A stretch of 64,000 bases of DNA, taken from the NCBI GenBank assembly GCA_965246715.1, contig CBDFFH010000002.1, forward strand, positions 192,001-256,000, read 5' to 3'. Source of the DNA: Chamaesiphon sp. GTDB lineage: Bacteria > Cyanobacteriota > Cyanobacteriia > Cyanobacteriales > Chamaesiphonaceae. Shown in pieces: positions 18,791 to 56,578 of this stretch (position 1 is its first letter; each line of letters begins with the position of its first letter). The notes beneath the pieces were generated by a model. It was not told the origin of the DNA. It saw only the letters and a list, made by a program, of their open reading frames with translations, and did no database searches. The position numbers and the translations under genes are program-made.

Positions 18791-18791
18791 A

Positions 18792-35520: not shown

Positions 35521-35530
35521 TTCAACCAAT

Positions 35531-35753: not shown

Positions 35754-35757
35754 TCAT

Positions 35758-36165
35758 TTAGCTAACAAAAACTTGAGGTGTAACAATTGGGATACCCCTG
35801 AAAGGATGAAGCACAAGCAAATCAGCATCATCACTGACAATACATCCAGCACCACCACTCACAGCCAATTCGAGAAACTTGTTGTCCTTCGAGTCACGGC
35901 AATCAGTAACAACTTCCGTAACTTCAACAATCATTGCATCATTTACAAATTTAGATAGAAATTGTAACCGCTCATCCTCTGAAATATAACGATTGAACTT
36001 GGGACGGCGCAACACATTATCAAGTTCAACTAGAATAGCATCAGACACTAAAACAGTGCCGAGAAAGAAGGCTAGATCGAATGCTTACCGAGGCACAGAA
36101 CATGGTGATAATACAGCACTGACAATCACATTGGTATCCAAGACAAATGTCTTACTACTCGTCAC
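35758..36165 (-). pseudogene. PIN-family toxin with a premature stop at 36085-36087
   Basis: FVLDTNVIVSAVL..PR*AF..CRDSKDNKFLELA..IVSDDADLL. Confidence 0.85.
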
Positions 36166-36385
36166 CAAGCAAAGTCTCCAAAATTTGAGGTGTTAGCCCC
36201 CGCGCTTCCGCCTTTGCCCCAATATCATCCATGATTTGTTGCAATGAAACGTCAGATGGAGCGAATAGTTCGCGAACATGCAACGATAGAAGCAACTGGA
36301 TCTTCTGTTGTTGCTCTGCTGATGCTTGGCTATATGCAAGAGCCGTAGGGACATCGACAGGAATAGAAATCGTAGTATTTGTCAT
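36155..36385 (-). CDS. Putative antitoxin
   Basis: AEARGLTPQILETLL C-terminus; overlaps the PIN start. Confidence 0.72.
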   Translation of the reverse strand: MTNTTISIPVDVPTALAYSQASAEQQQKIQLLLSLHVRELFAPSDVSLQQIMDDIGAKAEARGLTPQILETLLGDE

Positions 36386-36532
36386 CACTGCTCTCCTTAA
36401 TTTCAAATGAATGGAAATTGCTAACAGAAGAGCAATATTACCCATCAACCTGCTCTTATCTCACTCTATGTCTTGATTATAGCTTTAGACTGTTAGGCTC
36501 GGATTAACGGCTCTATCTCGATCTAGATTCGT

Positions 36533-36862
36533 TTAAAAATTTGGTTTGACGTGCTTAGTCCAGACTTCCATCAAAGCTCTAGCATCACTCGATGATAATT
36601 CCCCTAATTTTCTAATCAATAACGATCGCTCTAGACAATCGAGACGGGACAATCGCACAGTCGAAGCAACCCGCAATCCACAGATCTCCCAGTCAATTAA
36701 CACCACATCTGTTTGAGTCCTTGGTTTAGATGAAGTTACCGCTGCTACCACAACATCATCTCCATCAATCCAGAGGATTAAAACAGGTCTTTTTTTAGAT
36801 GCTGAACCATCGGTGAAAGTTATTTCAGCTATCCATAATTCACCTGCTTTAACAGTCATCAT
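36533..36862 (-). CDS. PemK/MazF-family toxin
   Basis: FTDGSASKKRPVLIL, AAVTS, GLRVASTVRL and KLGEL. Confidence 0.88.
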   Translation of the reverse strand: MMTVKAGELWIAEITFTDGSASKKRPVLILWIDGDDVVVAAVTSSKPRTQTDVVLIDWEICGLRVASTVRLSRLDCLERSLLIRKLGELSSSDARALMEVWTKHVKPNF

Positions 36863-37130
36863 AGAGCTTATCATCTTCTGAACTGTAGCTATTTAGAAAG
36901 GCATCATGAGTACGAATGGAACCTGTCGAATTCGGTTGAATGGCAATCCGATCGATTAAATCCAGCACATCTTGTTCTACAGTGCGCGAGGGTAGGGAGT
37001 TGAGAACATCGCGATCTGCCAAGTCAATAATTTCTGAGATATATCGACGGACTCGATCGGATATTTCTGGTTTCCACTCTTGCAATTTAATTCCTAATCT
37101 CTCAGCCAGGGCATCCATCGGTATCTCCAT
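36849..37130 (-). CDS. Chimeric putative antitoxin
   Basis: N-terminus matches the 27004-27192 protein; unrelated C-terminus HDAFLNSYSSEDDKLYDDC. Confidence 0.72.
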   Translation of the reverse strand: MEIPMDALAERLGIKLQEWKPEISDRVRRYISEIIDLADRDVLNSLPSRTVEQDVLDLIDRIAIQPNSTGSIRTHDAFLNSYSSEDDKLYDDC

Positions 37131-37244
37131 TGCAGATGATGAAACATCTCTATTTTGCCAAGTTTGTGACAACATCACAAGTAATAGGAGCAATACTCTT
37201 GGACTATTCTATTGGCATTGCTCCACTCGATCCCCCATATTTAT

Positions 37245-40200: not shown

Positions 40201-41888
40201 GTTGTTTGGGCAGAAGTGATAATTTCTTCGCGAATTGAATCGATCGGGGGATTGGTAACTTGAGCAAATAACTGTTGGAAATAATCGTAGAGTAATTTTG
40301 GTCGATCGGACAACACCGCCAACGGTGTATCAGTCCCCATCGAACCCGTTGCTTCCACACCATCCCGCGCCATCGGCGTAATCAGCATCCGCAACTCTTC
40401 AAAGGTATAGCCGAAAGCCATCTGACGTTGGAGAATCCCCCCTAGCCCCCCTTGGGAAGGGGGGGACAAGAGAGACTCTGCTCCGGCTCCCCCCTTATTA
40501 AGGGGGGTTGGGGGGGATTCAGGATCTGCGATGTCCTCCAGCCTGACTAAATGCTCGTCCAACCACGCCTGATAAGGATGTGCGCTAGTAATCTCATGCT
40601 TGATTTCCGCATCGCTCACAATCCGCCCAGCGACAGTATCCACCATGAACATCTTCCCTGGCTCCAACCGTCCCTTCGCCACCACCTGCTCCGGCGGAAT
40701 CGTCAGCACACCCGCTTCCGATGCCATAATCACCAGATCGTCAGTCGTCACATAGTATCGCCCTGGACGCAAACCATTCCGATCGAGTACCGCCCCGATC
40801 GAGCTACCATCAGTAAAGGCGATCGAAGCTGGGCCATCCCACGGCTCCATCAAGCAAGAATGGTACTCATAAAACGCCTTCTTCGCCGCGCTCATCGACT
40901 CATGCGCCGTCCACGGTTCGGGCACCATCATCATCATCGCATGGGGCAAACTGCGACCGGAAAGCGTCAATAATTCCAGGGCATTATCAAAAATTGTTGA
41001 GTCACTACCATCGACATTAATTGCAGGTTTAATCTTCTGAATATCGTCGCCGAATAAATCCGACGCAAACAGCGACTGCCGCGCCGTCATCCAGTTAATA
41101 TTGCCGCGCATGGTATTGATTTCACCATTGTGGGCGATGTAGCGATAGGGATGCGCCCGCTCCCAACTAGGGAAAGTATTGGTACTAAACCGCGAATGCA
41201 CCAACGCCAACGCGCTCTCCATGTCTGGATCTTGGAGTTCGGGGAAATATTGCCCCACCTGCACGGGCATCAACATCCCCTTATACACAATCGTCCGTGC
41301 CGATATACTCGCTACATACCAATGCACATCGACATTCGCCGCCCTAATTGCCGTATGCGCCAGCTTGCGAATCACAAATAACTTCCGCTCGAATGCTAAT
41401 TCATCCGCTAATTCCGGCGATTTGGCAATAAATACCTGCTGCATAAACGGTTCACTCGATTTCGCCGTCTCACCCAAGGAACCATTATCCGTCGGCACAT
41501 CCCGCCAACCCAATACCTTCAAGCCTTCCGCCGCCACAACTTCCGCGAAAATCTGACGACTTTTCGATCGAATCGCTGGATCTGGCGAACCATACACCGC
41601 CCCAACTCCATACTGTCCCGCTGCGGGTAATTCAATCCCTTCAGCAGTCGCCACCTTCTGCATAAACTTGTGAGGCACCTGCATCAAAATCCCCGCCCCA
41701 TCACCTGTATTTGTCTCGCATCCGCACGCGCCACGATGGTCGAGATTAACCAATATCGTCAGTGCTTGCGCCACAATCTGATGCGACTTCGCCCCTTTCA
41801 TCTGCGCGATCAAACCGATACCGCAAGCATCGTGCTCAAACTGCGGATCGTATAAACCTTGTTTGCTGGGTGGTTGAATGGTATTCAT
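37245..41888 (-). CDS. gltB: Glutamate synthase large subunit
   Basis: 1547 aa; EHDACG amidotransferase start, [36 protein letters not shown] (3Fe-4S) and the GXGXG domain. Confidence 0.97.
40435..40519. repeat. In-frame inverted pair of short dispersed repeats inside gltB
   Basis: CCCCCCTT..AAGGGGGG doublet encoding [10 protein letters not shown]...PPSQGGLGG. Confidence 0.8.
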
Positions 41889-42134
41889 TTAGGATCGGCT
41901 TAGAAATTGTGATGTAAGGTATCCCAGGATTTGACACGAGATGGGTACTCTACCTAGCCTTATATTTTCTAACCTATTCCCGCGATCGGGTGTCCCCCGA
42001 TACAAAAGTTTGCCCTCTGATACAAATATTTAAGGATGCGGGATGTTGACCTGGGAGACTCGTTTGAGTTATGTTTGTAACAATAATTAAAACTCACTTG
42101 TAAAATTAAATATCTTTTAAATCTGGATGAAAAT

Positions 42135-42434
42135 ATGAATATATTTATCAGCATTATTGCAACTGGGTTTGTGATATCGGTAATTTTGTTCGGATTAATG
42201 AGTTGGGCAAATGTTAGAAAGTGGCGTTCGTGGCTGACACTTGAAATGTATTGGGATCGTTATCCTAATTGTCACACTGATAATGGAACGAAGTGTTTCA
42301 ATTGCGGATCTCGCAACATTCATATGTTGGGCTGGAACCCAAAAGCTAAATCCCAAAACCAAAACCAAAAAATTCATCGATGTATGCAGTGCAACACTTT
42401 CCTTTACCGTACCGGAACTCATGATTTTTGGTAG
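42135..42434 (+). CDS. Hypothetical TM protein with a CxxC..CxxC zinc ribbon
   Basis: N-terminal TM; CFNC and CMQC motifs. Confidence 0.55.
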   Translation: MNIFISIIATGFVISVILFGLMSWANVRKWRSWLTLEMYWDRYPNCHTDNGTKCFNCGSRNIHMLGWNPKAKSQNQNQKIHRCMQCNTFLYRTGTHDFW

Positions 42435-42598
42435 CTCGGTTAGTGAAAATGATCGAGATGTAAAATTATAAGTTAAATTGTTCATTCGGTCATTTTCCGA
42501 TCCAACTTCTGCCGCATATCCCGTTCGCATAGAGTCGGCTTTGCCAAAAAGAACTCTCACCATGTAATTTATTCTAAGCTGCCTAATATTTTATCGTC

Positions 42599-43135
42599 AT
42601 GAATGTAATGTCTGTTTCTCAATACACTAATGTTTTTTATATTCTGATTTTGATTAGTTTATTTGCTCATATTAAACCAGCTCTATCTCAACAGCGAACC
42701 TGTGTCATTAATGATGATGGAGCCACCATATGTGGCAAGCCAACAACTGTAAAAAAAGAAACCAAGAAACCTCAAAGTACAGGATACCGAAAAGAGATTA
42801 ATAATTTTGTCTTGTTATTAAAAAAATGTAAAAGATCGGACACAAATGTAAAATGCGATCTGGTAGTTACAAATAAAGGGGCAGAAAGAGAATTGTCTCT
42901 AAATCCGGCATTTATTAAGATTATTGATTCTGCGGGGAAATCTCATCAATGTCAAACAGTAGAATTTGGAAGCGGTGATGTAACTGCAAAAATAACTCCA
43001 GGTGTCGAGTATGCTGCAACTCTTAATTTTGGGAACATACCCGATCAAATATCACAGGCTCAAATTTTAGAGATAGATACAGGCGTTACTGGTGTTGGCG
43101 TTTTTCAGTTCCGCAAGGTTTATTTCACAAATTAA
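42599..43135 (+). CDS. Hypothetical secreted protein
   Basis: Signal peptide (PALSQ) followed by a beta-rich domain. Confidence 0.65.
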   Translation: MNVMSVSQYTNVFYILILISLFAHIKPALSQQRTCVINDDGATICGKPTTVKKETKKPQSTGYRKEINNFVLLLKKCKRSDTNVKCDLVVTNKGAERELSLNPAFIKIIDSAGKSHQCQTVEFGSGDVTAKITPGVEYAATLNFGNIPDQISQAQILEIDTGVTGVGVFQFRKVYFTN

Positions 43136-43552
43136 AAATGTCGATCGTGCCAAAGTGGGATTTCTCCCTGTAATAGGTTTGAGGCTCGATCGATCGGTAT
43201 TGAGGAGCATCTTTATATCCTGTTGACATTATCGATCGATTAGCTTGGGTTTAGTCGATCGTGTCGTGGTTAATTCGATCGTTACAATATTTTTGGTGAC
43301 ATTAATACGCGATCGATTTTGCTTATATCACTCTACAACTGTTAATTTGAAGCCATAGGGTTTCGTCCCAATTCTTCGCGTAACACTCGTCTCAAAGTTG
43401 ATTCTAGTAGAATTTCTCCCTGTAGGTTGGGTTGAAGCCCGCGAAACCCAACAATCCCAGTGTTTGAGGCTCGATCGATTGCTATTGAGGAGCATCTTTG
43501 TACCCTGTAGGAATGATCGATCGACATTAATAACGTTTAGTTTCGCTTGATT

Positions 43553-43972
43553 TTACTCGATCGTCCAATTTTCAACCAGCAGATTGGGTATTCGATCGAA
43601 ATCTCGTGCATTTCTCGATAGTAAGATACCTTGGTTTGCTAAAACGATCGAGGCAATACGTAAATCTTGAGTACCAACTCGAATTCGTTGTGACTTTAGC
43701 TCTCGATAGATAGATTGAGCTTCTACTGTAAACTGCAAGACTTCAAATTCAGACAATAACTTTACTGTTTCCGACAGCCATCGATAAGCATTAGCCAGTA
43801 CATCCCCATCTTTAGCCTCAGATATTTGGGCGAGTCTACCGCGCACTTGTTCCTCAACATTAATTGCGGTAGTCGTCAAAACGATCGACTGTTGTTGCAA
43901 TCTATCTATCAATACCGGATGATTCCTGCCATAGAGACTGAGATGGTCGGTATCGAAAACATAAAGTGTCAT
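43553..43972 (-). CDS. VapC/PIN toxin
   Basis: FDTDHLS, INVEEQ..G, GTQDLRIASI and SRNARDF. Confidence 0.9.
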   Translation of the reverse strand: MTLYVFDTDHLSLYGRNHPVLIDRLQQQSIVLTTTAINVEEQVRGRLAQISEAKDGDVLANAYRWLSETVKLLSEFEVLQFTVEAQSIYRELKSQRIRVGTQDLRIASIVLANQGILLSRNARDFDRIPNLLVENWTIE

Positions 43973-44268
43973 ATTTCATCTTCGCACTCATTGGCAACTT
44001 GACGAATATGAACGAGTTTTTCGATTAGATCGTCGAAGGTTGGATCGTTCTCTAAAATACCCGCATACTGCATTGGCGTAGAATTAATCTTAGGTTCGAT
44101 CGAAATTGTCACAATCTTACCTGTTGACAATTGCGACTCTAACTCGGTTTTGGCATTAGCGATCGCTTCACCTTCTGTATTCCCATCAGCAGCGATAGAG
44201 GGGATTTCAAGTACGGAAGCAGTAAAACCCCGATCCGAACGACTTTTAACAAAAACTTGATACTGCAT
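43969..44268 (-). CDS. HicB-fold putative antitoxin
   Basis: FTASVLEIP..ADGNTEGEAIANAK; ATGA overlap with vapC. Confidence 0.75.
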   Translation of the reverse strand: MQYQVFVKSRSDRGFTASVLEIPSIAADGNTEGEAIANAKTELESQLSTGKIVTISIEPKINSTPMQYAGILENDPTFDDLIEKLVHIRQVANECEDEI

Positions 44269-44539
44269 TTTTTAGCCTAAGTCTCAGTTATTACTAGTAT
44301 TGCATATTCATCCTGTAAATAGTCCGATTACCGACCGTACCTACGCGAACGAGTCAGGAGCGTTAGTAGCTAGATCTCTCTCCGTAGCTTGGATTGAGCC
44401 TTGAAGCCCGACAATTCCTGTGATTGAGGCTCAATCGCTGTTGAGGAGCATCTTTATCCTCTGTCGGAATGATCGATCGATTAGTTTGGGTTTGGTCGTT
44501 GGCGAAGCCTACCGGAGGTAATCGTTGTTGAGTCGATCG

Positions 44540-44954
44540 TTAGCAGCGAGTAATTTCGATCGTGTTTTGCGATCGCCCAAAACAGACATCAAATTCTCGA
44601 AAGAAGTTAGTTTGCCCAAGAATCAAAGGCACCTCAGAGGATTGTACCCAAGCAAATGCTAGACGAACTGATTCCAGATCCCCTATTTGAATATGCAGAA
44701 ATAAACCTCGTGCTTCAACCTTTGCAAGATTTCCAGCCAATGGTAAACGAACAGTTTGTCTCTCCCAAATTGCACCCAATTGTAACCCGATATCATAAGG
44801 CAATAGATTGACCGTAGAACCACTATCTAACAATGCATTCGCCGAGACAGCAAAGTTTGCATAATTCAGCTCGATCGGAATCATCGGTAATGCTTCATCG
44901 TCAGCAAAGGGAAACTCGTTCGCGTAGCGTACCGGAGGTAATCTTCCTAGACAT
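44540..44954 (-). pseudogene. Retropepsin-like (LLDSGS) protein frameshifted by a 22-nt insertion
   Basis: Removing 44919-44940 restores MSRKIEFPFADDEALPMIPIEL.. from an ATG overlapping the upstream gene; ILGQTNFF motif. Confidence 0.8.
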
Positions 44955-45165
44955 GAGTAGATGCCTCTTGGTCATCCCGAATCATCTGCATCAGAACATT
45001 TGCAGCTTCTGTTGCATCGTAAGGCGACCAAACCGGATACTCTGATGCAGAAAAGATAACTTGTAACTCAGCATCTGGAACTTGCGCGGCTAGAAGTTTG
45101 AAAAGTGATAATTTGTCTGGCTGACTTAGATTGTTTACCAAAGGAATTACTTCAGCTAGAGACAT
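44947..45165 (-). CDS. Small antitoxin-like partner
   Basis: LSQPDKLSL..EYPVWSPYDATEAA; overlaps the downstream gene. Confidence 0.65.
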   Translation of the reverse strand: MSLAEVIPLVNNLSQPDKLSLFKLLAAQVPDAELQVIFSASEYPVWSPYDATEAANVLMQMIRDDQEASTHV

Positions 45166-45388
45166 AGTTTAAACTCCCAGACCTACGACAATGCATCTAT
45201 CATAAGCGATCTGTGAGGTGTTGTCTAACAAACCCGTTGCACATCAACCGTGTCAAGTTTGGCTGCCTAAATCGGAGAAGTCATTAGTGAGATTTTCTCC
45301 CCGTATAAACCCAACACTTCCAGTGTTTGAGGGTCGATTAATTGCCATTGAGGAGCACTTTATATTCTGTCGAAATTATCGATCGATT

Positions 45389-45793
45389 TTATGCCAAAAA
45401 TAGTTTTGAGGGCAGGTTAAAACGATCGCTTAATTTTTCCGCTTGAGTAATATCGATCGATCTCTTGCCATCGATAACTTCAAGTACTCGATCGCTAGAG
45501 CCAAATATACCAACTAAATCTGCTGGCTGAACATCGTTCGCATCCATTAAATGTAGCAGTCGGCTGTGGGGAGTCGATAGATTTTGAGATGGATAATGTT
45601 CTGATTCAAATTTTTCAACTAAGATGACAAACAGATCGATTAACCGTTCTTCTTCACCGCTAACTGTCTCCTTACTCATTGATGTTTCGATGATTCCCAG
45701 TACCCGTTCGTATTCTGCTTGCGATCGAATTGGCTGCGGTAATACATCCGCTAAGAGATTGGCATAGGCTTGACGATTAAAAGTAAGGGTCAT
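45389..45793 (-). CDS. higA: HigA-family antitoxin (HTH)
   Basis: PQPIRSQAEYE..LVEKFE..LLHLM..EVIDGKRSI. Confidence 0.85.
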   Translation of the reverse strand: MTLTFNRQAYANLLADVLPQPIRSQAEYERVLGIIETSMSKETVSGEEERLIDLFVILVEKFESEHYPSQNLSTPHSRLLHLMDANDVQPADLVGIFGSSDRVLEVIDGKRSIDITQAEKLSDRFNLPSKLFLA

Positions 45794-46076
45794 TTTTCCA
45801 GTTATCCTTATCGTATTCGGCGTGAGTGAGAAAGTATTTAAAGTAGACTAGCTGCCTAGAATAGTTGATGGAAACAATCAGTCGATAGCGATTGCCTTTA
45901 ATGTTAAATACCGTAAAGTTTCCTACAGCTTCTGCGGAAGCATAGGTTTGTTGAACCTCTGTCAGGTTTTGCCAGGTTACAACTTTAACGATTTCATTCC
46001 AATCTTCAATTTGGGTAGCAATGTCGGAAAATTTAGCAGCAGCTTCCCACAACCTACTAATTGCAATGAGGTGCAT
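45777..46076 (-). CDS. higB: HigB-family toxin
   Basis: VFNIKGNRYRLI..FLTHAEYDK. Confidence 0.9.
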   Translation of the reverse strand: MHLIAISRLWEAAAKFSDIATQIEDWNEIVKVVTWQNLTEVQQTYASAEAVGNFTVFNIKGNRYRLIVSINYSRQLVYFKYFLTHAEYDKDNWKNDPYF

Positions 46077-46533
46077 ATTATCTGCGGAATTCTGGTCTAG
46101 TAAATAGTTTAACGCTAAATCGCACCTTTTTATGAGCGTTGGCGTTGGCGTAGCCTCTGCCTGAGCAGAAGCCGCGCCGAGATGTAATCGCTATTAATTC
46201 GGTTGAGCCTTGAAACCCAATAATCTCAGTGTTTGAGGCTCGATCGATCTCTATTGAGGAGTATCTTTATATCCTGTCGGAATTATCGAGCGATTATTTT
46301 GGGTTTGGTCGATCGTGGTTAATTCGATTGAGCCTTGAAACCCAATAATCTCAGTGTTTGAGGCTCGATCGTTGGCGAAGCCTACCGGAGGTAATCGGTA
46401 TTGAGGAGTATCTTTATATTCTGTCGAAATTATCGATCGATTATCTATTTCGAGGAACCCAACAATTTTAGTGTTTGAGGTTCGTTCGCATAGCGTACCG
46501 GAGGTAATCGATCGCTATTGAGGAGTATCTTTA

Positions 46534-47763
46534 CTCACATCTTGCACCAGAATATAAGTACTAGATTTAGATCGAGACTAATTCCAAGGCAAGACCCTGC
46601 GAGAGCAGAAAGTCTCGCTTCCGATCGATTTCTACTAAAAGTAAACTCACTGCGATCTGTGGCATTAACTGTTGAAGTGCCAGCTCAGATTCCTGTCTCC
46701 ACTCAGGCGGAAGGCTTACGTTTGAGGATAAATAGACCCAGTGGGTGAGTACAAAACTAATAAAGCTCAGAAGCAGCCAACGGTATACACCTAAAAGTGT
46801 TTGTTGACCGAAGCTAGCCAGCCCAAATCGATATTTAGCAGTCTTGAAAAATCCTTCAATTGCCCATCGACGACTGCCCCACCAAGCAATCGTACTGCCT
46901 TTAAGAGCGCGGGTCGAAATCACAAATCTTTTCTCCAACTTACCATCCCGTTTTAAGTAGAACCAGGAAGCCGTAACCACGCCCTCTAAACCTGATAGCT
47001 TAACTTGTTGACCCTTCTTGCCTAGCATCTTCATCTGTCTCCCATCTGCCAGTTTCCGGTTATTCGGTATACCAACAATTGCTTGATGACGAAGTTTTTT
47101 GACCCCGTTGAGGAATTCGACACTACTAAATCCAGTATCGGCTAATACTTGGACTCGAAAGCGGTAAGTGAGTTTCTTGGGCAAGGTGCGGAGCAATTTT
47201 AGCCCCAATTGAGCAGGAGTAGTTGTGCCTTTACCACGCCAGGAACGGAACGCCCAAGGTATTCTCCACTGTCCAACGACTAAGTACAGTACAACCAAAT
47301 GCAGTCCTCGCTTACCGTTGAGAATATGTATCAACGTTGCAAATGCTTTGAATTTCCCCCTTTTCTCCAATGTAGTCAGATCGATAATTACCTGCAAGTA
47401 AGGTCTTTGTCCTTTGGCTGTGTAATTACTCAACTGTTTCAAAATATGTTGGCGAGTCGTACGAATCACGGCTCTGGTTGGCCACCCATATTCATTGAAA
47501 AATCTGCTCAAAGCCGCAGGTGATTTAATCACCCCATGTTCTGGTAACATTTGACCATTCTTAGGTTCCATAAATAGAGCGAAACTAGCTTGGAGACTAA
47601 GTTTCTGATAGGGACTGGGCATCAGCTCTAACAACGTGTAGAGTATTAATTGGGCGTACGGGAGAATGGTATTCACTGTTCTCATCAATGTTTTTACACG
47701 CCCTTTTTCTCATATTTTGACTCCTGCGAAAATCAGTTGTTATGTACTGGTGCAAGATGTGAG
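46534..47763 (-). mobile_element. IS701-like element inserted inside one repeat copy
   Basis: 17-bp IR CTCACATCTTGCACCAG; 4-bp TSD TTTA; the flanks rejoin to GAGTATCTTTATATCCTG. Confidence 0.88.
46567..47688 (-). CDS. DDE transposase (IS701/IS4-like)
   Basis: IIDLT, LADTGF and RWAIEGFFKTAK. Confidence 0.88.
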   Translation of the reverse strand: MMRTVNTILPYAQLILYTLLELMPSPYQKLSLQASFALFMEPKNGQMLPEHGVIKSPAALSRFFNEYGWPTRAVIRTTRQHILKQLSNYTAKGQRPYLQVIIDLTTLEKRGKFKAFATLIHILNGKRGLHLVVLYLVVGQWRIPWAFRSWRGKGTTTPAQLGLKLLRTLPKKLTYRFRVQVLADTGFSSVEFLNGVKKLRHQAIVGIPNNRKLADGRQMKMLGKKGQQVKLSGLEGVVTASWFYLKRDGKLEKRFVISTRALKGSTIAWWGSRRWAIEGFFKTAKYRFGLASFGQQTLLGVYRWLLLSFISFVLTHWVYLSSNVSLPPEWRQESELALQQLMPQIAVSLLLVEIDRKRDFLLSQGLALELVSI

Positions 47764-47935
47764 TTTATATCCTGTTGGAATTATCGATCGATTAGCTTTG
47801 GATTTTGTCGATCGCTTTGCCGACGTTTTTAGTCAGGGCTTGTAAGAGCGATCGATTTAAAAGCTTCTTAAATCGATCGCCATACCCCAACAACCAGTGA
47901 GTTATAATCGACATACGAGACTCAGAAACAACCGT

Positions 47936-48295
47936 ATGACTAGCAGCGAAATTAGCTATACCGAAGCACAGAGTAATTTAAGCGTTCTGCTCGATCGCGT
48001 AGCAGATAGCAAAGATATTATTATAGTCAAACGAGACGGCACCGATAAAAACGTCGCTCTCATTGCCGAAACAGATCTCAGCAGCCTCTTAGAAACGGTC
48101 TATCTACTGAGATCTTCCGCCAACGCAACTAGACTGCATCGGGCAATCGATCGAGCCAAACAAAGAGATCTCCAAGGCTACAGCCATACAGAACCAGAGA
48201 ACCCATCACAATCGATCGCTGCATTATGTGAGGAGTTAGGAATTGTGGCTCTTCACTACTTAGTATGCTCGATCGATAGCAAATGTGGCAAATAG
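47936..48295 (+). CDS. yefM: Phd/YefM antitoxin (C-terminus extended into ISL3)
   Basis: SYTEAQSNL..SLLETVYLLRSSANATRL. Confidence 0.85.
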   Translation: MTSSEISYTEAQSNLSVLLDRVADSKDIIIVKRDGTDKNVALIAETDLSSLLETVYLLRSSANATRLHRAIDRAKQRDLQGYSHTEPENPSQSIAALCEELGIVALHYLVCSIDSKCGK

Positions 48296-49682
48296 AAATT
48301 AATCAATATGTGAAATTGCCATAAAAGTGGAGTGATAATTGACATTGGGGGCATTTTGTTATTAAGTATAATCTAATTGAAAGCGATCTTGAGACAAACC
48401 AGAAGAAAATGCTCACCAAAAAGGAAATACAACTACTAACAGAAGTACTAAATCTAGCGGGAGTAAAAGTAAATGCCAAGCACCAACATGAAGGAATTGG
48501 AATAATTTTAGGAGTTGAGTCGAGCGAAAAAATAAGTGTTTGCCAACGCTGTGGTTTGAAAAGCGACAAGTTACACCAAAACCATCGGCAAATAATCAAA
48601 GATTTGGATTGGGGAGGGCAAGCGGTATTTTTAGAAATAAATAGAAGACAATTCAACTGCGAAAAATGCCAGAAACCATTTAGCGAAGAATTAGAATTTG
48701 TCAAGTCAAGAAGAAGATACACGAAAAGATTAGCAGATCGGATAATAGAAGAAGTATTAGCAGATGACATTAGGAGTGTAGCGAAGAAGGGGAAGGTAAC
48801 AGAGAAAGAAATAGAAAGAATGCTAAAGGATGCATCAGGAGATTTATCAAAAATAAAACCAATAGGATTAAAAAGATTAGGGATAGACGAAATAGCATTG
48901 ATTAAAGGGCAGGGAAAATATTGTGCAGTATTAATAGACATAGATCGTTCTAAATTATTGGCAATTATCGAGGGAAGAACCAAAGAAGAAATTAAGAAAG
49001 TCCTGAGAGAGTGGGGGTCAGAGGTATTAGAAGGAATCGAAGAAGTAAGCATAGACTTATGGCAGGGATATAAAAGTCTAGCAATAGAAATGATGCCAAA
49101 AGCTCAGATAGTAGCAGATCGATTCCATATAATGGTACAAATAAATCAAGAATTAGATGGAGAAAGAAAGAAGGAGAAGCGAAAAATCGAAGCAGAAATA
49201 AAGCAAGCAAAAACCCCAGAAGAAAAAGCGGAGAAAGCGGCTATATTAGCAGGAATAACTAATAGTAAGTATCCAATATTGAAAAACGAAGAAGACTTAA
49301 ATGAAGAACAGAAAGACAAGCTAGCTCAGGTAAAAAATGTATCAAGTCAGCTCGGAAAAATGCATCAATTGAAAGAGGATTTTCGAGAAATATTTGAGAA
49401 AAAGGAAAACTGGAATGAGGGATTACTAGGCTTAGGGGAATGGCTGTCAAAAGCTCAAAAATATTTTGTCAAAAGTCAAGGGACAATTTATCGATGGTTT
49501 GATGAAATACTGGCTTATTTTGACAATGGAACAACTAGTGGAGTAGTGGAGGGAATTAATAACAAGCTAAAACTAATCAAACGTTCAGCATATGGATTTA
49601 CTAATTTTGAGAATTTCCGAAATAGATGCTTGCTTAATTGGCACTTCAATCATTAATTTGGCATACTAACTAGTGAAGAGCC
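48247..49682 (+). mobile_element. ISL3-family IS (distinct from the 24092 element)
   Basis: IR GGCTCTTCACTA.TTAGTATGC; 8-bp TSD GGAATTGT. Confidence 0.93.
48409..49656 (+). CDS. ISL3-family transposase
   Basis: LGIDE, ADRFH and EGINNKLKLIKR. Confidence 0.95.
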   Translation: MLTKKEIQLLTEVLNLAGVKVNAKHQHEGIGIILGVESSEKISVCQRCGLKSDKLHQNHRQIIKDLDWGGQAVFLEINRRQFNCEKCQKPFSEELEFVKSRRRYTKRLADRIIEEVLADDIRSVAKKGKVTEKEIERMLKDASGDLSKIKPIGLKRLGIDEIALIKGQGKYCAVLIDIDRSKLLAIIEGRTKEEIKKVLREWGSEVLEGIEEVSIDLWQGYKSLAIEMMPKAQIVADRFHIMVQINQELDGERKKEKRKIEAEIKQAKTPEEKAEKAAILAGITNSKYPILKNEEDLNEEQKDKLAQVKNVSSQLGKMHQLKEDFREIFEKKENWNEGLLGLGEWLSKAQKYFVKSQGTIYRWFDEILAYFDNGTTSGVVEGINNKLKLIKRSAYGFTNFENFRNRCLLNWHFNH

Positions 49683-49686
49683 GGAA

Positions 49687-50010
49687 TTGTCCGCTAAAAA
49701 GAAAGATAAAAATCGCTCTGAAAATTCTCAACCAGAAATAATTATCGTTCAAAGGCAGATTATTTTTGATGAAGATTTCCGAGAAGATTTGCAATGGTGG
49801 TATCGGCAAGGCGTTCAAAAAGCCAACAAAATACTCGATCTAGTAGAATCCATTTGTATAGATCCATTTTTAGGAATTGGTAAACCAGAACCACTAAAAT
49901 TCATGGAAGCAAATACATGGTCGAGAAGGATAGATTTAGAGCATCGACTAATTTATCGAGTTCAAAATGAATCTATTCAATTCTTACAAGCTCGTTACCA
50001 TTATGAGTGA
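49687..50010 (+). CDS. yoeB: Txe/YoeB toxin
   Basis: FREDLQWW..PFLGIGKPEPLK..WSRRIDLEHRLIY..QARYHY. Confidence 0.93.
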   Translation: MSAKKKDKNRSENSQPEIIIVQRQIIFDEDFREDLQWWYRQGVQKANKILDLVESICIDPFLGIGKPEPLKFMEANTWSRRIDLEHRLIYRVQNESIQFLQARYHYE

Positions 50011-50275
50011 GATTTTTTCCCGTAGGTTGGATTTAAGCCTGCGAAGCCCAACAATCCCAGTGTTTGAGGCTCGCTCGTTGGCGAAGCCTACCGGAGGTAA
50101 TCGCTATTGAGGAGCATCTTTAATATCCTGTTAAGATTATTGCTCGATCGATTAGCTGGGGTTTGGTCGATCGTTGTTGATTCAATCGATTGCCTCGATA
50201 CTTTACTCGTTGGCGGAGCCTCTCATGAGAGAATCGGGTAAAATTAGGAGGCTGTAGTAAATTGCGGTGTAAACT

Positions 50276-50518
50276 ATGACAGAACTGCTTCAACAGGTAA
50301 TCGCCCAAATCGAACAACTGCCAATCGATCGACAAGAGGCGATCGCGGCTCGGTTTCTGGCAGAATTGGCGGAAGAACAACAAGCTGAGAACGTATGGGT
50401 TGAAGATGTCCGATCGAAAATTGATGCTGCCATTTCAGCCTCAGAGCAAACGCCACCGATCGATGGCGAAACCTTCGTTAACCAAATTTTAGAGCGGTTT
50501 CAGCGCGATCGGGTGTAA
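50276..50518 (+). CDS. Putative antitoxin (ParD-like C-terminus)
   Basis: Small ORF directly upstream of a ParE-like gene. Confidence 0.68.
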   Translation: MTELLQQVIAQIEQLPIDRQEAIAARFLAELAEEQQAENVWVEDVRSKIDAAISASEQTPPIDGETFVNQILERFQRDRV

Positions 50519-50524
50519 ACATAC

Positions 50525-50824
50525 ATGAGTCTCTATGTTATTAACGTTCTTGCCAGTCGAGATCTGATTGAAATCGCTGACTACTTTGCTGAAACCAATG
50601 TAGAAGTAGGCGAACGATTTTTTAAAGAATTTAATAGCAAGTGTCAACAACTAGTTTCCTTTCCCAGCAGTGGTAAAAGCTATGGAGCAATTCGCCCAGA
50701 TCTCAGAGGACTATCTCTCGAAGGTTATATTATTTTCTACCGTATTCTCGATGATGGCATCGAAATCCTCAGAGTTGTTAGTGGTCGTCGTAATCTTCCA
50801 GCACTTTTTAGCGACCCAGACTGA
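50525..50824 (+). CDS. RelE/ParE toxin
   Basis: ASRDLIEIADY..FPSSG..YIIFYR..IEILRVVSGRR. Confidence 0.9.
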   Translation: MSLYVINVLASRDLIEIADYFAETNVEVGERFFKEFNSKCQQLVSFPSSGKSYGAIRPDLRGLSLEGYIIFYRILDDGIEILRVVSGRRNLPALFSDPD

Positions 50825-51088
50825 TTAACTGAGTGGGTTTTCTTTCCGTAAGTTGGGTTGAAGCCCTCGGAACTCATCAATCTCAGTTTTGAGGCTCGTT
50901 CGCATAGCGTACCGAAGGTAATCGTTGGCGAAGCCTACCGGAGGTAATCGCTATTGATGAGTATCTTTACATTCTGTTGAAATTATGGCTCGATCGATTG
51001 GCTTTGGTTTAGTCGATCGTGGTTGATTCGATCGATCTTTGGTGTGATGGTTTTGGGATCGATCGATACGAATGACGGTCGAACGAGA

Positions 51089-51448
51089 TTATTGGAGTAA
51101 GATATCTGCCGGAATATCCAACTGACCGTGAAGTGCGCGAATCATTTCTAGCGTTAAAGTTTGACGTTTAGACATTACTTCTGACACTAAATATTCGCTA
51201 CCAATAATTGGAATTAGATCGGCCTTCAATCGATCTGACTGTTCTAGTCGAAACTCGATCGCGGCGATCGGATCTGGTAATCCGATTGGAAAATATTTAT
51301 CTTCATATAACTCAATCAGAGTTGCCAGTACTTCTAATTCATCAGCTTCAGGTGTATTCGGCTAAGATGACATCAAAGCTCCCGCTCGTTCCAATGCATC
51401 CTGATAATCAGTTTCAGTTTTAATCGGTCTAATTAAAGCAGTATTCAT
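51089..51448 (-). pseudogene. HigA-like antitoxin with an internal TAG at 51362-51364
   Basis: Manual translation: MNTALIRPIKTETDYQDAL..SS*PNTPEADELEVLATLIELYE..PDPIAAIEFR..LTLEMIRALH. Confidence 0.82.
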
Positions 51449-51572
51449 ATTAACTCTACATCAATGGTATCGTAATCTTGATGAGTTCCAACAAATCGGA
51501 TAAAAATAATCTGTGTGGATCGCGTTGAATTAGCCACAGAAATACATGAGTATCCAGCAAAAACCGACCCAT
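51445..51572 (-). pseudogene. Fused remnants: vapC 5' end plus higB 3' end
   Basis: MGRFLLDTHVFLWLIQRD joined at CGATC (51518-51522) to QIIFIRFVGTHQDYDTID. Confidence 0.8.
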
Positions 51573-51784
51573 TACATATATTCCTGTAAATCATCTAAAG
51601 GCGCATTAAAATCATCAGACATCCACACCTCTTCCTTCCAGATGCCGAAAGCATTTTTTCGATCTAGTGGGGGTGTTTGCACCGACTGATTATGCTTTGC
51701 AACCAAACCCTCAATATATTGCAGGGCTTCCTGTTGCACCGACTCTGGTAGTCGCTGAATTTGTTCGAGGAGTGTTTGCTCCAT
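51572..51784 (-). CDS. DUF2281-like antitoxin (orphaned)
   Basis: IQRLPESVQQE..FGIWKEEVWMSDDFNAPL. Confidence 0.8.
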   Translation of the reverse strand: MEQTLLEQIQRLPESVQQEALQYIEGLVAKHNQSVQTPPLDRKNAFGIWKEEVWMSDDFNAPLDDLQEYM

Positions 51785-52157
51785 ACGATTATCAAGGGCA
51801 ATAAATATGTACCCGTATTTTAGCTCAAACCTATGGAAGCGCACTCATAAGTATCAAAGTGAAATAATTTAGCTAGGGATATTTCTCCCTCTAGGCTGAA
51901 TTGAAGCCTGCTAAACTCAACAATCCCAGTGTTTGATGCTCGATCGTTGGCGAAGCCTACCGGAGGTAATCGCTATTGAGGAGCATCTTTATACCCTGTC
52001 GAAATTATCGATCGATTAGCTTGGGTTTGGTCGTTGGCGAAGCCTACCGGAGGTAATCGTCGTTAATTCGATCGCGAAGCGTGGGCTTTGCCCAATCGTT
52101 GCAACATTTGTGGTAACATTGAGAAGATATCGATCCTCTATCTAGCCAAAAATACTT

Positions 52158-52379
52158 ATGCTGCTAAATATCAAAAAACGCGGTAACTCACTGAGTATCA
52201 TTGTCCCCAAAGAAATGGCAACGAGTATGAGTGTTGAAGATGGCGATACCCTCTTCGCCACCAAAACACCATCGGGATATGAGATTTCCGCATACGAGCC
52301 TAGTTTCGCAGCTAAAATGGAAGCGGCTCGACAAGGAATGAAAAAATATCGCAATGCCTTAATCGAGTTAGCAAAATGA
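52158..52379 (+). CDS. AbrB/MazE-type antitoxin
   Basis: KRGNSLSIIVPKE..KYRNALIELAK. Confidence 0.87.
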   Translation: MLLNIKKRGNSLSIIVPKEMATSMSVEDGDTLFATKTPSGYEISAYEPSFAAKMEAARQGMKKYRNALIELAK

Positions 52380-52783
52380 GCGAACCTTGTTGGCTAGATA
52401 CTCGTGATGTTTGTGCCATTCACAATGAAATCATTGTTCAATCTGGTGGTGATGCTGGCATCCTCAATGAAGGTGCTTTGGAATCAACCTTAAATAAACC
52501 CAAAAATCTGTATTGCTATGCTGATGAAATAACTTTATTCCCATTAGCAGCCGCTTATGGCTATGGGCTTGTCAAGAATCATTGTTTTATCGATGGTAAC
52601 AAAAGGATCGCGCTGATTGCTGTGTACACATTTCTATCGATTAATGGAATCGAACTGACAGCATCAGAAATTGATGCTGCAAATTTTTTCTTGGAGCTAG
52701 CAGCAAGTCAGGAAAATCAAGAAGAAGGAATGAGTAGATTGGTAAACTGGCTGCAAATCAATAGTGAGATTTCTCCACTGTAG
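52376..52783 (+). CDS. doc: Doc (death-on-curing) Fic-family toxin
   Basis: HCFIDGNKR motif; ATGA overlap with the antitoxin. Confidence 0.9.
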   Translation: MSEPCWLDTRDVCAIHNEIIVQSGGDAGILNEGALESTLNKPKNLYCYADEITLFPLAAAYGYGLVKNHCFIDGNKRIALIAVYTFLSINGIELTASEIDAANFFLELAASQENQEEGMSRLVNWLQINSEISPL

Positions 52784-53271
52784 GCTGGGTTAAGCCTCGA
52801 AAACCAACAATTCCAGTGTTTGAGGTTCGCTCGTTGGCGCAGCCTACCGTTAGGTAATCGCCGTTGAGTAGCATCTTTTATACCCTGTCGAAATTATCGA
52901 TCGATTACCTATTTCGAGAAACCCAACGATTCCAGTGTTTGAGGTTCGTTCGCATAGCGTACCGGAGGTAATCGATTGCCATTGAGAAGCATCCTTATAT
53001 CCTGTCAAAATTATCGATCGATTAGCTTGGGTTTGGTCGTTGGCGAAGCCTACCGGAGGTAATCGTCGTTAATTCGTTGGCGTAGCCTCCGCTTTGCGGA
53101 ATCGATCTTTGGTGCGATGGTTTTGGGATCGATCGCCTATGGCACCCTACGCGATCGATGTTGATGACGATCGAGCTAAATTCACAATCGCTCATGATAT
53201 AATTATACTAGCCAATTGTAGACAATCGATGTTGGATATTTTGGCTCAACTACTTAACTTCAGGACAGAAT

Positions 53272-53514
53272 ATGAGCGATCGAGTAGTTACCGGAACGAT
53301 CGACAAAGATGGTGTTGTTACTTTTGACGAGGAAGTAACGATCTCCGAGCCTCAAGCCGTTACCATAATTTTCAATGCTGGTATTGAAGCTAGTAAACCT
53401 GAACTCAAAACGCAACAAGAGCTAACAGATAAAATCATTCAAGGCTTACACGAAGCAATTACAGGGAAAACAGTACCTCTGTCAGCATTATGGGACGAAG
53501 TAGATGCAGACTGA
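53272..53514 (+). CDS. Orphan antitoxin-like protein
   Basis: IQGLHEAITGKTVPLSALWD C-terminus; an overlapping downstream ATG runs into a repeat copy after ~11 codons. Confidence 0.55.
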   Translation: MSDRVVTGTIDKDGVVTFDEEVTISEPQAVTIIFNAGIEASKPELKTQQELTDKIIQGLHEAITGKTVPLSALWDEVDAD

Positions 53515-53586
53515 TGAGACGCAACCTCCTGTTAGGTAATCGCCATTGAGGAGCTTCTTTATACCCTGTCGAAATTATCCTCGATT

Positions 53587-53878
53587 TCATGCCAAAAGTA
53601 GTTTTGAGGGCAGATTGAAGCGATTACTTAATTTCTCAGCCTGATTGAGATCGATCGAGCGTTTACCATCGATAACTTCCAATACTCGATCGCTAGAGCC
53701 AAATACATCAATTAAATCTGCTAGTTGAACGTCATTCGCATCCATTAAATGCAGCAGTCGGCTGTGGGGAGTCGATCGATTTTGAGATGGGTAATGTTCT
53801 GATTCAAACTTTTCAGCTAAGATGACAAACAGATCGATTAGCTGTTCTTCTTCACTGCTAACTGTCTCTTTATTCATT
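53587..53878 (-). pseudogene. 5'-truncated second higA copy
   Basis: Close paralog of 45389-45793 from MNKETVS onward. Confidence 0.82.
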
Positions 53879-54255
53879 TGCCTGGGCGCATCAATACACA
53901 TTCTATGAGTCCAAGAGTTCAAAAAATTCAAGCACGAATCGAAGAATATTTAGTGGATGAAGTCAAGAAAATTCCCGCAAAACTAATTCTACTCGGAACT
54001 TCTGATGTAATTGAGTCATTATTCGGTAAATATAAAATTTTTGCCCAAAGACGACCAATAAAAGAGCTTGGGGCTAGGATCTTACTCATTCCTTTAGCCA
54101 CGATAGAAATTACACTCGATTTAGTCAAAGAAGCAATGGAATCCATCAGCTTTATCGATGTTGTTAACTGGGCTAAATCCATTTTTGGTTCTTCGATGCT
54201 CTCACGCCGAAGAAGCCTGAATTCAGCCGCAAATTCTGACGCAAAACCTGCATGA
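53879..54255 (+). pseudogene. Transposase C-terminal fragment (family uncertain)
   Basis: LGTSDVIESLFGKYK resembles a DDE third-residue helix; abuts and truncates higA. Confidence 0.6.
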
Positions 54256-54586
54256 AGTCTTGTCCTGTCTGGGAGGACAAAATTAACATGCTAGGCACTG
54301 CCCACCCAGCCCTTTCAATGTGACAAAAACAACATGCATGTAACGGCGGAAATCCGTCTTCGGATCGATCGAGACTAGTGGTTGAGTGCCCCTCCTCGAT
54401 CGAATTATGAGCAGTTTTTCGACCGCCGAAGACGGTGCGCAAGCTTCGAGGAGGGGCACGCCATAATTGAAAAAGATTCAAAACCGCATTCTATTATCGA
54501 TCGAAAAACAGTAGTAAAACAGTAACTTCTGTCACATTGAAAGGGATGGCACTGCCCACCCTACATAATAGATATTTAAGTGTATT

Positions 54587-56578
54587 CTAGCGTTCGGTTA
54601 GCTTAGTTAACACTTGATTCGATCGCTCGACAAAAGCATTCATATTCTCGGCATTAATGCCCTTTTGAGCCATCAATGCTAGGTCGTAAACATGCTGACA
54701 AACGAGATTGACTAGCTGTTGATTTGGCGAATCTCCATCGGTGCCGACGAGCGAACCTTTGTTGATATTTGCCAAGTTTTGAATCAGCGGATGTGCGGTG
54801 TTGACAACGAGAATATGATCTTCTGGAAACTCTGCGGTTTGTTGCTGCATCATTGCCGTCATATCGCGCATCCGGCGCATAAATTCAGGTAATAATACCA
54901 TCGCTGGCGGTGTCGATTGGGCATTATCGCCTTTGAGTGATTCGGTACGGATCGTAACTTTGGGTTTACCGATCGCCGCAGTAAAGATATCCTTAATCTG
55001 TTCGCTCCGAGTTTTATTAGTATTCGGATCGATGATTTCGGGAGTCTCATCCGATTGAATCAGGCTGCTATCGAGTTCGGCATCTACCCGTGCAAATTTT
55101 ACATTGCTGTGTTCGCGTTCGAGGAAGCTCACAAAGTGGGTATCGATGAACGAATCGAGAAATAGCACTTCTAAACCCTGACTCTTATGCAGTTGGATAT
55201 AGGGTGATTGACTGGCTTCATCGGTAGCGTAGAAGACGCGATTTTCGTAAGTGGGTTCGCCCTCTTCTGTCGGAGCTGCTGACTTACTATGACGCTCTTG
55301 ATTCCGTTCTAAATACTCGGCTAAGGTGGTGTAGGGTAGGCTCGGGAGATTGTCTTCAGATTTCCACGCATCATCTTCACCATCAGTCGTTGCCGCTGTT
55401 ACTACTGGAGGCGCGACGAAGGTAGTCCGATAGATAACGATATCTTCGATTTGCTTTTTGAATTTATCGTCGTTGAGACAGCCAAATTTGATAAAGGTAC
55501 TAAGATCTTCCCAACCTTTAGCATACGCCGCCCGATCGTCATGAAAGAGTTCTTTAAGTCGGTCGCCAACTTTTTTGGCAATATAATCGGCAATCCGGCG
55601 GACGGTGCGATCGTTAGTTAAGGCACTCCGCGATACGTTGAGTGGAATATCGGTGCTATCGATGACTCCCCGCAATGGTAACAGAAATTTGGGAATCACT
55701 TCATCACAGCGATCGCTAACAAATACCTGATTGCAAAAGAGTTTCGCCTGTCCTTTGGTCAGATCTAAATCTGGTTGTAATTTCGGGAAGTAAAGAATCC
55801 CATTGAGGGCAAATGGGTAATCTGTATTCAGGTGTACCCACAATAATGGCTCTTCTTGGTAAGGATAGAGATAGCGATAAAATTCGAGATAATCTTCTTT
55901 AGTTAAATTCTGTGGTGACTCTTTCCACAATGCTTTTTGTTTGTTTAGGACTTCACCATCGAGGGAGATGGGTACGGGCATGAAGTCGCAATAGGTTTTG
56001 ACTAGATTCTTAATCCGTGCTGGTTCGAGATATTCAGCTTCCTCATCTTGAAGGGTAAGCGTAATCGTCGTTCCGCGTTCGGTGCGAGTGGATTCGCTGA
56101 TTTGGAAGCTCGGCGAACCATCACAAGACCAGTGGACGGCGGTGGCACCATCGCGGTAGGAGAGGGTATCGATTTCGACGAGACTCGCCACCATGAAGGA
56201 CGAGTAGAAGCCTAACCCAAAGTGTCCGATGATTTGTTGGTCGCTATTTTTCTGATACTTCTCGATGAATTCTTCGGCGCTAGAGAAGGCGACTTGATTG
56301 ATATATTTTTTGACTTCATCCAGACTCATGCCGATGCCATTATCGGAGATCGAGAGCGTCTTTTTATCCTTATCGATCGACAGATTAATCGCGGGTTCGC
56401 CGATTTCGCCGCTAAAGTCACCTGCGAAGGAGACCATTTTGACTTTGGCAATGGCATCGACGGCGTTGGAGATTAGCTCGCGGAGGAAGATTTCATGGTC
56501 GGTATACAGAGATTTCTTAATGATCGGAAAGATATTCTCGGTATGGATGGTGATGTTACCTTGTTCTATCACTGTCAT
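54587..56578 (-). CDS. htpG: Hsp90 chaperone HtpG
   Basis: IFLRELISNAVDA, DNGIGM, IGHFGLGFYSSF and IPLNVSRS. Confidence 0.96.
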   Translation of the reverse strand: MTVIEQGNITIHTENIFPIIKKSLYTDHEIFLRELISNAVDAIAKVKMVSFAGDFSGEIGEPAINLSIDKDKKTLSISDNGIGMSLDEVKKYINQVAFSSAEEFIEKYQKNSDQQIIGHFGLGFYSSFMVASLVEIDTLSYRDGATAVHWSCDGSPSFQISESTRTERGTTITLTLQDEEAEYLEPARIKNLVKTYCDFMPVPISLDGEVLNKQKALWKESPQNLTKEDYLEFYRYLYPYQEEPLLWVHLNTDYPFALNGILYFPKLQPDLDLTKGQAKLFCNQVFVSDRCDEVIPKFLLPLRGVIDSTDIPLNVSRSALTNDRTVRRIADYIAKKVGDRLKELFHDDRAAYAKGWEDLSTFIKFGCLNDDKFKKQIEDIVIYRTTFVAPPVVTAATTDGEDDAWKSEDNLPSLPYTTLAEYLERNQERHSKSAAPTEEGEPTYENRVFYATDEASQSPYIQLHKSQGLEVLFLDSFIDTHFVSFLEREHSNVKFARVDAELDSSLIQSDETPEIIDPNTNKTRSEQIKDIFTAAIGKPKVTIRTESLKGDNAQSTPPAMVLLPEFMRRMRDMTAMMQQQTAEFPEDHILVVNTAHPLIQNLANINKGSLVGTDGDSPNQQLVNLVCQHVYDLALMAQKGINAENMNAFVERSNQVLTKLTER

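Follow-up and report, generated by a model that had tools for sequence, protein, structure and literature searches.

A toxin-antitoxin cassette array delimited by a REPIN-derived repeat in the cyanobacterial genus Chamaesiphon

The DNA analysed here, hereafter the window, is a stretch of 64,000 nucleotides from a Chamaesiphon genome (positions 192001-256000 of contig C2 in G000, a 6.1-Mb genome in a 55-contig assembly). Between window positions 43154 and 53590, on one side of the glutamate synthase gene gltB, lies a row of toxin-antitoxin (TA) modules placed in between co-oriented copies of one direct repeat. The copies are 50-200 bp long, and a full one consists of a head starting at AG, a repetitive extragenic palindrome (REP) hairpin tagged with GTAG, a core of about 48 bp between two CGATCG sites and a tail of variable length. 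A sequence-only reading of the window had counted about 13 copies, all on one strand with genes pointing both ways, and a genome-wide search with a hidden Markov model (HMM) bears out the count and the orientation. The model was trained on the window's own copies after excision of a 26-nt dispersed insert, and with a cut-off of E<=0.01 it gave 18 matches, 15 of which lie at 43154-53590, all on the + strand. These 15 matches represent 13 repeat copies, one being split by an IS701-like insertion sequence (IS) element and one divided into two by inserts; the genes between the copies are found on both strands. The three matches outside the array are all partial: the core only (C5:71964), the head only (C35:43509) and the REP (C36:165937). 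The sequence-only reading had allowed that the repeat might be scattered over the genome, and with 15 of 18 matches in the array the core is not scattered. Its description of a sharp left end and a REP hairpin holds in part, since the left end is present in 8 of the 13 copies but GTAG with an intact stem in just three; an intact GTAG-REP hairpin lies at 43421-43454. The features of the array and of the gltB side of it are as follows (aa, amino acids).

37245-41888 (- strand): gltB (glutamate synthase large subunit), which anchors the variable locus
42135-43135 (+): slot next to gltB, here with two non-TA genes (99 aa; 178 aa, DUF4352-like) and with different content in other genomes
43154-43283 (+): repeat 1, with head at AG, REP deleted, core and tail
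43345-43407 (-): remnant of the brnA antitoxin gene, its last 21 codons; repeat 2 attaches by its head to an AG within the gene
43406-43530 (+): repeat 2, with full head, intact GTAG-REP hairpin and core
43553-44268 (-): cassette of a 99-aa partner without family match and a VapC/PIN toxin
44368-44542 (+): repeat 3
44540-45165 (-): cassette of a 72-aa protein and an aspartyl-protease-like gene
45219-45257 (+): left arm of an integron attC site, a truncated relic within the cassette, 86% identical over 35 nt to the attC at C27:167374-167408
45286-45392 (+): repeat 4, with head at AG and REP partly deleted
45389-46076 (-): intact cassette of the higB toxin and a higA-type partner
46190-46533 (+): repeats 5 and 6 and the left part of 7, headless empty tandem copies
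46534-47763 (-): IS701-like element within the core of repeat 7, with TTTA duplicated
47764-47812 (+): right part of repeat 7
47936-50010 (+): cassette yefM-yoeB, interrupted by an ISL3 element at 48247-49682 with GGAATTGT duplicated
50006-50191 (+): repeat 8, its head meeting the end of yoeB at AG and providing the stop codon of that gene
50276-50824 (+): intact cassette of an 80-aa partner and a ParE toxin
50832-51036 (+): repeat 9, with two 26-nt dispersed inserts
51092-51844 (-): decayed compound cassette of higA with one stop, a higB remnant, a vapC remnant and a DUF2281/VapB antitoxin
51875-52074 (+): repeat 10, head joined at AG
52158-52783 (+): cassette of an AbrB/MazE-like antidote and a Doc toxin, doc running into the next head
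52763-53110 (+): repeats 11 and 12, a tandem pair
53272-53514 (+): RelN-type antitoxin without its toxin
53538-53590 (+): repeat 13, core only
53590-53877 (-): 5'-truncated second copy of the higA at 45389-45793
At 44499, 46372, 46485, 50078, 50899, 50925, 51947, 52034, 52834, 52949, 53040 and 53077: dispersed elements of 26-28 nt

The TA identities proposed for these genes stand (PIN/VapC, HigB, YefM, YoeB, ParE, MazE/AbrB-like, Fic/Doc, DUF2281/VapB and a RelN-type antitoxin), some of them with matches below the curated cut-off. The pair that had been called vapC/hicB-like does contain a VapC/PIN toxin, but the hicB-like label is lost because the 99-aa partner has no family match. Two stop codons had been placed in the left end of the following repeat, and both are there: the yoeB stop is a TGA at 50008-50010 within the head that starts at 50006, and doc enters the head at 52763 and ends at the TAG of GTAG (52781-52783). 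The empty tandem copies noticed earlier are likewise real, at 46190-46534 and 52763-53110. The row of TA modules between repeats is also real, but several of the modules are broken and one cassette carries the attC left arm. Broken modules are the brnA remnant, the second higA, which has a stop and lacks an intact higB, the vapB and relN antitoxins without toxins, and yefM-yoeB with ISL3 between its genes. The two IS insertions and the several orphans indicate that the array in this genome is partly decaying. In sequencing run X3, yefM-yoeB is seen without the ISL3 interruption, and in run X1 seven of the eight listed pieces are identical to the window. Other neighbour orders in runs X3 and X4 (for example 51065 to 43562 and 51064 to 47900) were left uncounted because they come from other strains, with 90% likeness across the repeats.

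Many repeat copies contain 26-nt pieces beginning TTGGCGAAGCC, which are a separate dispersed element (84 blastn matches genome-wide). The dispersed elements are 26-28 nt long, are sited at ATCG and come in two variants with 84 and 68 genome-wide matches; they look like the small mobile repeats that Elhai et al. reportedly described in 2008. An Rfam scan of 41800-54600 for known RNAs gave no match, and the candidate origin of the repeat as a gene fragment was rejected, tblastx having given just REP look-alikes and short chance matches. Further candidates, weighed by eye, were pdif/Xer modules and a promoter function for the core. At window positions 18480-19420 there are tandem CGATCG-rich units of 63-79 bp that resemble the array-repeat tail reversed, although blastn at E 1e-3 does not match them to it.

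The repeat is a feature of the genus. Its core motif was found in 18 of 27 Chamaesiphon genomes, with none in a reversed control, and 45 of the 48 rows from a genome collection are titled Chamaesiphon, the rest being one uncultured bacterium, one Cyanobacteriota bin and one 2.2-kb contig from a Bacteroidota bin, which is probably mis-binned. The head-plus-REP pattern was found in none of 299 genomes outside the genus, and the core pattern in no viral contig. In the best-match stretches of the relatives, 145 repeat copies were mapped at 34 loci in 17 genomes, at least one weak opposite-strand match (23 bits, L046) having been dropped. Twelve cassette families recur in this map with about 90% nucleotide identity. 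Eight have a toxin-domain match (ParE, PIN, YoeB, Doc, HigB, BrnT, ParE-like and a weak PIN), and the remaining families are two-gene modules, for example HNH or protease pairs. The orientation to the repeat is the same in 50 of 50 same-family cassette pairs, and at the 37 joints, out of 97, where both neighbours belong to recurring families, there are 34 distinct neighbour combinations. The start of gltB, whole or truncated, is positioned 0.6-2.4 kb before the first repeat in 11 of 18 genomes, and the slot between them holds non-TA genes that differ among genomes. The recurring families, their fixed orientation and variable order, and the differing genes of the gltB-side slot mark the row as a cassette array. 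Content and order vary widely among the relatives and are not invariant, and the earlier proposal that cassettes are gained and lost with the repeat as anchor, either RecA-dependently or through a trans-acting enzyme, fits this variation. Empty units also occur in tandem runs of five to six, 91-95 bp each, at L101:1962-2586 and L044:1419-1872.

Several further observations concern the loci of the relatives. In three genomes (L023, L036 and L051) the repeat and cassettes come just after a gene with what is by eye a uvrA-like 3' end, a second hot spot. At L046:8690-9366 a cassette contains a Tox-ART-HYD1 ADP-ribosyltransferase-like gene and a 90-aa partner. The gltB paralogue of the locus is patchy in the genus and a paralogue of about 43% identity is general; G011, assembled in three contigs, has neither the locus paralogue nor the repeat core. 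Small arrays at other loci showed no synteny with this genome for an empty-site comparison. Literature searches by title and start of abstract, in a library with few subscription papers, brought up no description of such an array.

The repeat has a recognizable parent. When the head alone was used as a query, it was found 250-600 nt upstream of a gene for a 167-aa REP-associated tyrosine transposase (RAYT; NF047646, 200 bits) in five genomes with differing neighbour genes, and it also starts free REP doublets, or REPINs, located after unrelated genes. The array HMM aligns with DNA upstream of a RAYT gene (L171, gene at 4393-4896) over positions 2-141 of 153 (60 bits) and with a free REPIN over positions 2-127 of 153; in the alignment the homology extends across the head, the REP and the first half of the core. 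A full REPIN is located at L172:1910-2130. The free REP doublet forms a single long hairpin (fold z -4.95). The spacer of the array copies is shorter, a remnant of the second REP is found in just 6 of 145, and 23 of 54 first REPs in arrays keep GTAG and the stem. The homology, the shortened spacer and the lost second REP together indicate that the array repeat is the left arm of a REPIN, locally multiplied and worn down. A long-range stem between REP and tail was considered and rejected; its bases pair in 62-100% of cases, yet no better than in shuffled columns and with no covariation. The parent REPIN family is scattered and of low copy number, whereas the array repeat is clustered. The matching RAYT is present in 8 of the 27 genomes, and at C36:41084-41584 the genome analysed here encodes an intact RAYT of 46% identity, associated with another REP type. 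The neighbours of the 167-aa RAYT vary among genomes of the genus (L171, L174, L175, L176, L177 and L189), which suggests that this RAYT still moves. The row beside gltB is, then, a genuine and genus-wide TA cassette array, free of an integrase and built on a REPIN arm.

The heads have been joined to 50 distinct left flanks, with nothing conserved upstream of the AG. Ten of these flanks were also found headless and in register, and eight of the ten continue with AG and share just 2-3 letters with the head, AG having a background frequency of 5.6%. The testable set includes the window joints at 43406 (within brnA), 50006 (the end of yoeB) and 51875. Of the two non-AG joints, one involves a self-duplicated head and the other follows a 26-nt insert. 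Over 127 REPs genome-wide, most of them of the other REP type, AG is not clearly enriched 15-16 nt before GTAG. As described in the accessible text of PMC8266576, the TnpA-REP proteins of E. coli and Stenotrophomonas cut single strands between C and T, 5' or 3' of the REP, and rejoin them at the same dinucleotide, strand transfer requiring a 3' C. AG is CT on the other strand and therefore corresponds to the known RAYT site, and we infer that a RAYT made the left joints, with which the footprint in the sequences is consistent. The link to RAYT enzymes that the sequence-only reading had drawn from the GTAG motif thus takes the form of two features, the homology to the flank of a RAYT gene and the CT footprint.

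Exchange among the repeats follows another pattern. Pairs of copies that share the left cassette agree in head length in 57 of 103 cases, those that share the right cassette in 12 of 63 and those that share neither in 962 of 3696, so that heads travel with the cassette to their left. This bears on the possibility that a RAYT does every step, bottom-strand cuts at the CT of successive heads freeing a single-stranded circle of repeat and cassette that is reinserted at another CT. Such a process would account for the exact AG joints at 50 flanks and the strict co-orientation of the repeats, for the full head on the first repeat in 19 of 34 loci compared with 22 of 63 inner repeats, and for the full head with which small arrays at unrelated loci often start. 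It would, however, make the head follow the right cassette; several recurring cassettes are almost or fully headless yet change neighbours, the second REP is mostly lost and no matching RAYT turned up in this genome, and we consider it unlikely that a RAYT does everything. The REP head is dispensable for shuffling, a point that goes beyond the sequence-only reading, as do the scattered, low-copy parent family and the gltB pieces described below.

Within the core, substitutions are linked to neither neighbour and column-wise linkage shows no single crossover point. Four gametes are present in 280 of 300 site pairs, and core likeness is 0.833 between genomes and 0.846 within them. The mosaic cores fit repeated exchange throughout the core among genomes, and mosaic direct repeats without one crossover point are what is found in arrays shuffled by homologous recombination. 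A site-specific recombinase encoded elsewhere in the genome could instead recognize the 48-bp core, which alone persists in nearly every copy and has many near-invariant positions among 17 genomes, and the genome has 23 tyrosine-recombinase matches. We regard this as very unlikely: there is no linkage switch point along the core, the core has its homologue in the spacer of an ordinary REPIN, and among 80 array-linked proteins scanned (from 159 clusters) there was no recombinase save IS transposases.

CGATCG, the core of highly iterated palindrome 1 (HIP1), brackets the core of the repeat and marks many tail deletions. It is formally conceivable that exchange takes place at these sites by a HIP1-specific short-homology route with the rest of the repeat as a passenger. 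The minimal shared unit does span one CGATCG to the next, a gltB piece boundary at CGATCG recurs in three genomes, and of the 112 junctions called to the right of the core, which are non-independent and include 26-nt inserts at those sites, 48 are near CGATCG, against 25.5 +/- 4.1 for random positions. The accessible parts of two sources report that HIP1 boosts integration efficiency in Synechococcus (10.1101/2024.09.10.611283) and that it bounded one precise deletion (PMC13756078). However, CGATCG is common anyway (4.6/kb genome-wide, 5.8/kb in the array), gltB piece ends are not significantly enriched in it (3 of 18 against 9% expected, p 0.22), and the AG joints and the conserved sequence between the sites are left unexplained. 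The array resembles the HIP1-linked recombination of those two sources and differs from it in its specific 48-bp core and REP head and in a HIP1 joint enrichment that is only partly significant, and a HIP1 route is in our judgement quite unlikely.

In organization the array is close to chromosomal integrons and to clusters of attC sites lacking integrases (CALINs), with co-oriented sites, cassettes of one or two genes, fixed orientation, variable order, richness in TA pairs, empty units and the most variable genes at one end. TA cassettes in integrons are covered by 10.1101/2022.08.03.502626, and CALINs are defined by attC (Cury 2016, PMC4889954). Unlike integrons and CALINs, the array has no complete attC site detected, no adjoining IntI, no folded core and no single crossover point. 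The sequence-only reading had noted the lack of an integrase, and rightly so: the window has no tyrosine recombinase, and a search of this genome found no full IntI, TIGR02249 matches being below the cut-off and confined to N-terminal fragments, none in the window. An attC-like fold of the core was sought and rejected, with no signal on either strand. True-integron relics, consisting of a few attC sites and N-terminal IntI fragments, are found in the same genome at C27:167310-169047, C51:439-801 and C37:46616. The array might still be a decayed integron, a CALIN whose attC sites were overwritten by REPINs, considering the attC left arm in one cassette here and another in G013, the IntI fragments of this genome and the IntI above cut-off in 7 of 27 genus genomes. 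Against this, a single attC query from this genome, which may miss divergent sites, gave 45 matches in the genus with just two in arrays, both incomplete; no array contig carries an IntI; and the folding of the cores is no stronger than that of shuffled sequences (mean z -0.2; 60 of 97 full cores). An origin by overwriting is extremely improbable. Integron cassettes have been acquired now and then, but the delimiter is not attC.

The locus also grows without the array repeat. On the other side of gltB, at window positions 17866-37244, there is a second array with MazF/PemK-like (by eye), PIN and other small modules, which are separated by direct copies of the gltB 3' end, 130-960 bp long and 85-94% identical:

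21435, 26528, 27013-27668 and 35531: copies of the gltB 3' end
27658: internal gltB piece

Arrays with gltB 3' pieces are also present in G010 and G015, and four gltB pieces in three genomes start at approximately gltB nt 4419, a CGATCG site. The abrB-doc pair of G010 has gltB on one side and a gltB 5' piece on the other. Truncated gltB 5' ends with the upstream region are found within or beside arrays (L033:12047-13034, L101:3988-4295, L031, L042, L029 and L036), once bounding abrB-doc. The gltB pieces thus delimit similar cassettes at the same locus, in an accretion that is enzyme-free. In homology-facilitated illegitimate recombination, one end of the incoming DNA is exchanged by homology and the other is joined loosely, and the gltB-piece modules are as expected if DNA enters in this manner. 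Within the gltB 3' array, at 29272-33911, are five genes (579, 126, 329, 387 and 73 aa), of which the four scanned had no Pfam match, and at 10732-12123 a Hen1-like RNA-repair methyltransferase gene is located near two RNase-toxin-rich arrays. In Synechocystis, sll1502, which we take to be gltB, adjoins the TA loci at sll1504-ssl2923. The accessible text of PMC4963859 gives three TA loci there and mentions TA loci in clusters, without repeats.

We present a three-step model for the evolution of the array, in which a RAYT makes the joints, homologous recombination in the core swaps the cassettes and TA addiction retains them; taken as a whole, it is probable, with some reserve. In the first step a RAYT acting in trans would cut single-stranded DNA between C and T and join the left end of the repeat to any AG, creating new cassette ends, even within genes; the footprint is visible in the joints, and the enzyme is deduced from it. 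In the second step RecA-type exchange in the core and tail between repeat-ended packets would add, delete, duplicate and reorder them, and the empty 91-95 bp tandem units would be products of unequal exchange; the shuffling itself is observed, and RecA is its presumed route. Natural transformation probably feeds this exchange (ComEC and DprA are encoded), and CGATCG sites perhaps help. In the third step TA pairs would accumulate because their loss is costly, and other genes would turn over, chiefly beside gltB.

A number of observations count against this model. The matching RAYT was found neither in this genome nor in G020, assembled in three contigs (best matches 46-48%), and full heads are less frequent in genomes with the matching RAYT (7 of 32) than in those without (37 of 65). 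A cut at AG would be a bottom-strand cut, for which the second, inverted REP should be required, and that REP is mostly lost. The joint test is small (n=10), the head pattern begins with AG, which by itself accounts for part of the AG conservation in heads, and alleles of the yoeB flank without AG at the place of the joint also exist. As to the exchange, no recombination event was observed directly, four-gamete patterns can also be produced by repeated mutation, and the cores, about 84% alike, are short for efficient RecA exchange. Approximately 30 of the 48 core positions are near-invariant, a pattern also expected of a protein-binding site, tail length shows only a weak link with the right cassette (45 of 137 against 952 of 3674), and most of the relatives' assemblies are fragmented. 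The lost second REP, the fewer full heads alongside the matching RAYT and the failure to find that RAYT here suggest that the enzyme may act rarely, on full-length copies, in genomes through which it passes.

Repeat-bounded modules that are shuffled by homologous recombination are known from the promoter early stem-loop (PeSL) cassettes of T4-type phages and from the orphan toxin-immunity arrays of contact-dependent inhibition (CDI) and Rhs systems. In these, as here, short direct repeats are the exchange points without a dedicated recombinase; the present array differs in having a mobile-element repeat, a base-exact left joint and type II TA cargo in a cyanobacterial chromosome. With the REPIN-RAYT system, or REPtron, it has in common the GTAG-tagged palindrome, a REP-doublet parent forming a long hairpin, a position beside a RAYT gene and a left end on CT, and tandem clusters with flanking DNA are known there. 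Unlike REPINs, the array lineage has for the most part lost the second REP, lies in clusters instead of being scattered and delimits shuffled protein-coding cassettes; the RAYT here has neighbour genes that differ by genome, whereas described RAYTs are mostly vertical. In their accessible parts, PMC3116915 (Bertels & Rainey 2011), PMC5581495 (Bertels 2017), PMC3733652 (Di Nocera 2013), PMC8266576 (Corneloup 2021) and 10.1101/2024.07.17.603846 describe REPIN clusters, give RAYT function as unknown and describe no gene cassettes. The array works like an integron but fails membership of that class, and its descent is from the REPIN-RAYT system, from which it differs in structure, clustering and cargo.

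The role of RAYTs and REPINs in the cell is an open question, and cutting and joining between C and T are known from test-tube work. At this locus many natural joints on that dinucleotide, some of them within genes, form the ends of swappable packets across a genus, and the enzyme and its substrate can be named and the cut site predicted. It is likely that the row points to a job for RAYT enzymes. It represents an integrase-free way to build an integron-like TA library, of a kind that integron-finding tools would miss, and a place where the role of HIP1 in short-homology exchange could be measured. A bolder version is tentative, and we think it doubtful: a RAYT would be the analogue of the integron integrase, with a tamed REPIN as its site, capturing foreign genes at CT and moving TA cassettes as single-stranded circles, and the genus would keep beside gltB a standing, one-directional library of TA cassettes that the RAYT can excise. 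If that were true, there would be a second cassette system beside integrons and RAYTs would have a concrete function.

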